Shown here: one piece after another, positions 20,870 to 21,598 of the stretch
Position numbering within the stretch: the first letter of the stretch is position 1
Layout of the letters: each line of letters opens with the position of its first letter
Notes under the pieces: generated by a model
Told to the model about the DNA's origin: nothing
Databases searched by the model: none
The model's input: only the letters and a program-made list of their open reading frames with translations
Program-made: the position numbers and the translations under genes
DNA from: Escherichia coli
GTDB taxonomy: Bacteria > Pseudomonadota > Gammaproteobacteria > Enterobacterales > Enterobacteriaceae
NCBI RefSeq assembly: GCF_044324875.1
Contig: NZ_CP172185.1
Length of the DNA stretch: 64,000 bases
Reading direction: 5' to 3' (one strand)

Positions 20870-21598
20870 GTGATATGCTCACCTCAGAACAAGACTGGTG
20901 CCCTAATGAAAAAAAGAAATTTTAGCGCAGAGTTTAAACGCGAATCCGCTCAACTGGTTGTTGACCAGAACTACACAGTTGCAGATGCCGCCAAAGCTAT
21001 GAATGTCGGTTCCTATACACTGGGGGGCATGGGTACGTCAGCTCAGGCGGGAACGTCAGGATACCACGTCTTCTGCATCACCACTCACATCAGAGTAGCA
21101 ACGTATTCATGAACTGGAAAAGCAGGTTCGTCGCCTGGAGGAACAAAAAACGATATTAAAAAGCTACAGTGCTCTTGATATCCTTCCCACTGAACGGTTT
21201 ACGATAGTTACCAGACTGAGCGGCGACACACGATTGTCAGTCTTTGCGCTGCTCTGGATGCTCATTGCAGCAGTTCCGGCACTGGCAGAATCGGCTCAAT
21301 ACGATTGATCCGGCGCGAATCAAATTGTATAGCGAAACAGTCCGGGCCTGGAACCAGAGTCGGGGTTCCGCAGGTGCGCGTGCTCTGGCAGATATGCTGA
21401 TTCAAAATGGTATCCCGATGAGCAGTTGTCGTGCCAGGCGGCTGATGAAGCATCTGAACCTGAGAAGTGCTCAGCCCGGAAAATATCAGTACAAAAATGC
21501 CCGCCAGGAGCATACCAGCCTGCCGAGTCTGCTTGAGTGTCGGTTTTCTGTGCTGGAGGCCGAGCAGGTATGGATTCTTAAATAAACCTCGAGTCTGA
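20870..21598 (+). mobile_element. IS911-like (IS3 family) element, frameshifted and truncated in OrfB; its right ~600 bp are repeated inverted at 56054..56655
   Basis: OrfA start [32 protein letters not shown] matches IS911 OrfA as recalled, then frameshifts; OrfB-like ORF 21244..21585 ends abruptly. Confidence 0.6.

Follow-up and report, generated by a model that had tools for sequence, protein, structure and literature searches.

A 34,457-nt segment of a genomic island in Escherichia coli occurs in both orientations among complete genomes of the species. It is bracketed by two inverted copies of a decayed insertion sequence (IS) fragment, and the flip is very probably the result of homologous recombination between these dead copies. 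The locus was analysed in a 64,000-nt stretch of an E. coli chromosome, referred to here as the window. The orientation present in the window is predominant and the flipped orientation is a minority.

Repeat search, MAFFT alignment and self-BLAST agree on a single inverted pair in the 64-kb window, with the left arm on the plus strand and the right arm on the minus strand (Table 1). Each arm is 604 nt long, 603 of the 604 positions are identical (MAFFT and self-BLAST) and the arms are 34,457 nt apart. The sole mismatch is at window position 21347, where the left arm has a C and the equivalent position of the right arm a T. A match of 604 nt at 99.8% identity is not due to chance in 64 kb, since chance matches of such kind would be shorter than about 20 nt. 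An earlier note on this DNA had placed a ~600-bp inverted repeat at 20996..21598 and 56054..56655, which is within 1-3 nt of the boundaries found here, and its description of two near-identical, inverted copies bracketing ~34.5 kb is accurate. The outer repeat boundary is set by the 5′ truncation of the right copy. At the inner boundary, a 12-nt indel is followed by 13 common nucleotides and then by unrelated sequence, which on the right-arm side is another IS3-family fragment and then a group II intron. The remaining long repeats in the window are two direct pairs only (self-BLAST).

Table 1. Features of the invertible locus and its surroundings, in window coordinates.
Feature	Position	Strand	Remarks
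Direct pair, 1310-bp IS	1847-3156 / 34137-35446	direct	self-BLAST
PhoX-family phosphatase gene	18242..20227	-	fixed marker outside left arm; adjoins left arm in both states
Whole left copy, internally deleted degenerate IS3-family element	20834..21746	+	sequence reading; right terminus inferred
Left arm, 604 nt	20994..21597	+	degenerate IS3-family fragment: OrfA remnant and OrfB N-terminal HTH, frameshifts, stops
Invertible segment, 34,457 nt in this strain	21598..56054	.	opposite orientation in EC6563, HCM-24C-3, A3176
iha (siderophore receptor/adhesin)	26682..28769	-	in segment; GF4 annotation transfer, ORFs
amiC paralogue, island-borne	38708..39967	-	in segment; GF4 annotation transfer, ORFs
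Direct pair, IS1	47985-48752 / 57268-58035	direct	self-BLAST
IbrB-like	48926-49570	-	in segment; GF4 annotation transfer, ORFs
PAPS-reductase/IbrA-like	49555-50781	-	in segment; GF4 annotation transfer, ORFs
Group II intron reverse transcriptase/maturase ltrA	53893..55416	+	in segment, near right arm; ORF intact
C-terminal fragment (rve, rve_2) of a different IS3-family transposase	55527..55958	+	abuts inner side of right arm; arm homology stops there
Right arm, 604 nt	56055..56658	-	5′-truncated at 56658; outer flank is hyp-sodC module
sodC	58766..59290	-	fixed marker outside right arm; adjoins right arm in both states

Annotation transfer from GF4 and the open reading frames confirm that iha, amiC and the ibrAB-like pair are inside the segment, as the earlier note had stated, together with many IS remnants. 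Beyond the right arm follow a hypothetical gene, sodC, and then sitABCD and iuc/iutA.

Two recombinant junctions predicted for an inversion were built in silico and compared with 5,426 complete genomes of E. coli. Full-length matches (100% coverage) to the PhoX-arm-ltrA junction come from three of them, EC6563, HCM-24C-3 and A3176. The SgcJ-arm-sodC junction is likewise matched over its full length (100% coverage) by these three and by two structurally complex genomes. In EC6563, HCM-24C-3 and A3176 both junctions match at 99.7-99.9% identity, and the annotated order is PhoX, flipped segment, sodC. BLAST comparison of EC6563 with the window is direct up to 21597, inverted over 20994-56658 and direct again from 56055. 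The switch between the direct and the inverted match lies exactly inside the arms, with no indel and nothing gained or lost. Both reciprocal junctions predicted for a recombination between the arms are thus found in nature, with breakpoints inside the repeats, and the arms themselves (604 nt at 99.8-100% identity) are far longer than the minimal homology for RecA.

The window-type junctions were found in 53 records for the left and 52 for the right side; 47 records contain both, and 45 of these show a consistent window configuration. The distance between the two junctions in these 45 records is 29-39 kb, varying with the IS load. Altogether, the tally is 45 records in the window state and three in the flipped state, where the record counts are redundant (eight records represent one 5,067,659-bp genome and F11 is present twice). 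These data support two proposals of the earlier note: that recombination between the copies would invert the whole intervening segment, and that orientation is polymorphic among isolates. They also remove the two grounds on which it would have been abandoned, diverged arms and a single orientation across genomes.

Several further candidates were not accepted as inverted genomes. XH992 and VTB96933v were not counted, because only one recombinant junction is present at 100% and the annotation shows complex multi-copy structures. Matches with 74% coverage to the query for the right recombinant junction were rejected as well, since they come from a separate locus with the order LysR / arm / sodC. 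PKF4 and PKF11 have window-type junctions on opposite strands, which is due to an inversion bounded by ISEc23 in which the arms are not involved. In PKF4 (1646784-1649200 and 1693167-1695583) and PKF11 this separate inversion of ~47 kb lies between two inverted intact ISEc23 copies and flips the block ibrB′-ltrA-right arm-sodC-sit-iuc, so that the 604-bp arms become direct repeats.

To place the orientations on a phylogeny, SNPs were compared in 24.4 kb of common island sequence from 12 genomes (56 variable sites) and in 20 kb of the inner segment from 14 genomes. The basal lineages (window and SCU-115; GF4, F11 and DG341-1; Ch1; 702/18) all have the window orientation, and so has the outgroup SMS-3-5 relative to sodC. 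EC6563, HCM-24C-3 and A3176 fall into one tight clade with XH992 and LS45, defined by common SNPs. The inverted genomes differ by 0-7 SNPs per 20 kb from their relatives in window orientation. The closest of these is 702/18, with 1-4 SNPs per 20 kb of inner segment and a single SNP in the inner 20 kb to HCM-24C-3. Since the three inverted genomes belong to one clade, a single change from window to inverted orientation suffices for them. Flanks of the sit/iuc type and of the dpt type each occur with both orientations, and were considered as a sign of independent inversions in two island contexts; the one-clade SNP tree weakens this reading.

The direction of change would thus be from the window to the inverted state. 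We consider the opposite polarity, by which the same mechanism would have derived the majority window arrangement from an ancestral inverted one, unlikely but worth weighing. In about 221 genomes a further copy of the arm is found at an unrelated locus near LysR, where 428 nt of the window's left-inner flank, the arm and the hyp-sodC module are contiguous. This is the right junction of the inverted state at an independent position. The two-armed island is found in about 60 genomes. The form at the LysR locus could be the older one. Against this, all basal lineages of the SNP tree and the SMS-3-5 outgroup (relative to sodC) show the window orientation, and the left copy, as arranged in the window state, forms one contiguous IS that includes both ends.

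LS45 lies within the inverted clade, yet has the window orientation. Its arms reach ~800 nt further (~1.4 kb in total) and the part with IS100, ibrAB and ltrA is lost. The LS45 structure could be derived from a three-copy structure like that of XH992 by one inversion between long arms and one deletion between direct copies. With the window orientation inside the inverted clade, the iha-amiC block would have been flipped twice or more within a very short evolutionary distance. A recurrence of the flip would rest mainly on LS45, and one ancestral event could explain the three inverted genomes. Since orientation tracks phylogeny, the flip appears to be heritable and occasional and not a rapid switch.

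It is very improbable that the inverted state is an assembly artefact, with the segment mis-oriented in the three deposits. Such errors classically arise where a segment lies between inverted repeats that are longer than the reads or inserts, and a 1-nt homopolymer deletion present in both arms of A3176 suggests some uncorrected long-read error. However, 604 bp are trivially spanned by long reads, the three genomes come from independent laboratories in three countries (China, Viet Nam and South Korea), and they form one clade with common SNPs, which is not expected from random mis-orientation.

The arms appear to be the remnant of an IS3-family element and not a functional member of this family. 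In the Pfam comparison, the N-terminal HTH of OrfA (HTH_Tnp_1) scored 23.5 bits against a cut-off of 24.1 (E = 6.8e-5); the match covers only profile positions 1-40 of 75 and the reading frame is broken. The N-terminal domain of OrfB (HTH_21) scored 35.3 bits and exceeds its cut-off of 28.1. No rve/DDE catalytic core was found in the arm with Pfam, so that the OrfB architecture of HTH_21 followed by rve is lacking. The core is deleted: the left copy goes from ‘...EQVW’ straight to the ‘ILNYYNSVRPH’ motif typical of transposase C-termini, which is encoded in its 3′ part.

The left copy begins with an IRL-like terminus (TGAAATGGCACACTGAATTTGG...) and ends in a probable right terminus (...GCACTGCAGTGTTCA). 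Its start (TGAAATGGCACACTG...) is 92-94% identical to the left end of IS911/ISEc52. The probable right end (...GTGTTCA) is at ~21746, and the complementarity between IRL and IRR is weak. The right copy is without a 5′ terminus. The earlier note had called both copies truncated, which is correct for the 5′ end of the right copy; the left copy keeps its IRL-like terminus. The same note had called them IS911-like, and this applies only to a stretch of ~160 nt at the beginning of the left copy (20850-21009), which is its 5′ tip and lies nearly completely outside the repeat. IS911-annotated features match query positions 1-160 only (~92.5%), and no IS911 match was detectable in the repeated core. 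The best named relative of the core is ISEc31, with ~77% identity. Thus, the arms resemble the IS3 family (IS911, ISEc52, ISEc31) in their OrfA HTH and OrfB HTH_21 remnants and in the 5′ terminus of the left copy. They differ from it in the divergent core, the deleted DDE domain, the broken frames and the missing 5′ end of the right copy. Judged from these features, neither copy would be able to transpose.

Frameshifts, stops and the internal junction are the same in both copies, which suggests that the fragment was duplicated after its decay and that the copies do not stem from two transpositions. This bears on a transposase-made inversion, either by intramolecular transposition or by an IS3-family transposase acting in trans on the element ends. 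Inversions flanked by inverted IS copies are a known product of intramolecular replicative transposition, the window has intact IS3-family elements (IS629-like), and the separate inversion in PKF4 and PKF11 is bounded by two intact ISEc23 copies. We nevertheless regard such an origin as highly improbable. The 3′ boundary, too, is common to both arms, the right copy has no IS 5′ end, a pattern of target-site duplication is absent, and the two states differ only by a reciprocal exchange within the homology.

Variants within the arms point to an exchange between them. The 21347C of the window's left arm is private to it, and both arms of every other genome examined have a T. In A3176, 21113A>G and the 1-nt deletion, which is located in a G run, are common to both arms, and in SCU-115 both arms have 21055G>C. 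Private variants that are present in both arms of one genome suggest gene conversion from arm to arm, which indicates that the arms do recombine with each other.

For the proposed homologous recombination, the arms would be duplicates of one already-decayed IS3-family fragment, placed in inverted orientation 34.5 kb apart in the IS-riddled island near ynjA, and would serve only as 604 bp of homology. Occasional reciprocal recombination, presumably RecA-dependent, would flip the segment from its PhoX-proximal to its sodC-proximal end, and non-reciprocal exchange (gene conversion) would keep the arms identical. Because the breakpoints lie in identical pseudogene sequence, no gene is cut and no promoter moved, and the result would be a near-neutral, heritable structural polymorphism. 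Least probable of all is a programmed, recombinase-driven element of the fimS, Hin or shufflon type that controls genes of the segment: two orientations exist, and iha as a surface adhesin/receptor is of a gene type that is sometimes phase-variable, but the annotations of the segment and its flanks contain no gene for an invertase or a tyrosine recombinase and show just IS transposases and ‘integrase core’ (rve) pseudogenes. Moreover, the arms are made up of 604 nt of pseudogene sequence, unlike the short sites of a recombinase, the flip neither splits nor fuses an ORF or a promoter at the boundaries, and orientation follows phylogeny, with all eight records of the 5,067,659-bp genome in the window state.

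The locus shares with fimS/FimBE, Hin/hix, Cin and the shufflons two orientations bounded by inverted repeats; it differs from them in that it has no dedicated recombinase and no short sites, nothing is switched and the orientation is inherited along lineages. It is closer to the inversions mediated by IS elements, prophages and rrn operons in E. coli and Shigella. Large chromosomal rearrangements in E. coli O157:H7 include inversions by homologous recombination between repeated mobile elements (PMC8743559), and IS-driven rearrangements are described for Shigella (PMC8072062). Repeats of at least several hundred bp, reciprocal junctions, breakpoints within the repeats and both orientations among isolates are in common with these cases (PMC8743559, PMC8072062). 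In contrast to them, the repeats found here are 604-bp dead fragments and not intact IS elements or prophages, and the segment is small (~30-35 kb) and located wholly in the island, so that the replichore balance is not affected. The mechanism is therefore a textbook one and the locus an ordinary recombination-driven inversion polymorphism, which reveals no new mechanism or function. No description of this particular inversion was found in the literature.

The inversion is a real structural polymorphism in an island with genes associated with ExPEC/APEC virulence, with iha inside the segment and the sit and aerobactin genes adjoining it. As the locus shows, even ~600 bp of dead IS sequence still gives rise to inversions, duplications and deletions in islands of this family. 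It is also a place where short-read assemblies and synteny-based comparisons are unreliable.

In K-12, xthA is a + strand gene at ~1.83 Mb and belongs to the counter-clockwise replichore. If this layout applies here, replication would run co-directionally with iha, amiC and ibrAB in the window state and meet them head-on once the segment is flipped. One might speculate that this has a small effect and is one of the reasons why the window state predominates. It seems very improbable that the segment flips often enough within a clone to give mixed populations, in which its orientation relative to replication would modulate expression of iha and its neighbours. If it did, the locus would be an accidental recombinational switch and not a frozen polymorphism.

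The arm belongs to a repeat family that is variable in copy number and extent, and the other recombination products of this family seen in related strains (LS45, XH992 and VTB96933v) speak for homologous recombination. XH992 contains three copies of the repeat, with sodC duplicated and sitABCD in between. In VTB96933v, sodC modules are located at both ends of the segment and no PhoX gene is adjacent. An example of the arm copy at the LysR locus is found in EC17CM2 (330659-332299), near a LysR-family gene and an ABC transporter; this copy is a potential long-range recombination partner for the island. In EC6563, LS45 and HCM-24C-3, sodC is followed by dptFGH, the genes for phosphorothioation-dependent restriction, and not by sitABCD and iuc, which suggests that the island flanks are modular around the sodC-arm unit. 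In a broader and more speculative reading, the arm together with the sodC module may be a portable hotspot of recombination by which ExPEC/APEC islands are reshuffled time and again.

The window is part of the E. coli chromosome and contains xthA, ydjXYZ and ynjA followed by a large genomic island riddled with IS elements. Among complete genomes GF4 is the closest, and the two are collinear save for several IS insertions. An arm-type (P4-like) integrase gene at ~5066-6253 (position transferred from GF4) opens the island right after ynjA. A tRNA attachment site for the island was sought, and ARAGORN found no tRNA gene in the 64-kb window. In SMS-3-5, the related island falls within the interval published as GI-pheV. 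GI-pheV islands of ExPEC have been described without mention of an inversion (PMC11537424). The cargo of iha, sitABCD, iuc/iutA and sodC is in common with these islands (PMC11537424), whereas the island analysed here adjoins ynjA and has no tRNA gene within the 64 kb. Compared with the pheV interval of SMS-3-5, this suggests that the island was integrated at another site or was relocated.

The two direct pairs of repeats offer further routes for rearrangement. The 1310-bp copies are IS3-family elements with termini TGAACCGCCCCGGG..., which we take to be IS629-like; they are 99.85% identical and have target duplications of 3-4 bp (TTG; CTAT/TAT). One copy is located in the ydjX/ydjY core region and the other in the invertible segment, and both are missing from GF4 and the other compared genomes. 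If the two recombined, ~32 kb would be deleted, and with it the island integrase, PhoX, the left arm and iha. The two IS1 copies are identical and straddle the right arm. GF4 has an IS1 at another site (after window position ~56923), and most genomes are without IS1 at these junctions. A deletion between the IS1 copies of the window would remove ibrAB, ltrA and the right arm, and the inverted repeat would be lost.

Some differences are specific to this strain or to few genomes. Neither GF4 nor EC6563 has the 2.64-kb insertion found at 15723-18363 of the window. The proteins encoded there are IstA-like and IstB-like (long stop-free stretches of 548 and 342 amino acids), which indicates an IS21-family element. 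The window (507 codons) and GF4 have an intact ltrA frame; in the annotation of most related genomes, ltrA is a pseudogene that contains an internal stop. In the SgcJ/EcaC-family gene (22563-23015, minus strand) a 1-nt deletion relative to GF4 at ~23006 removes the ATG (MKK... becomes YEK...), and the gene is probably inactivated or started later in this strain. Five private SNPs are found within 45 nt at 23373-23417, in an rve (‘integrase core’) pseudogene; this cluster has the appearance of a short tract acquired by gene conversion from a different IS copy.
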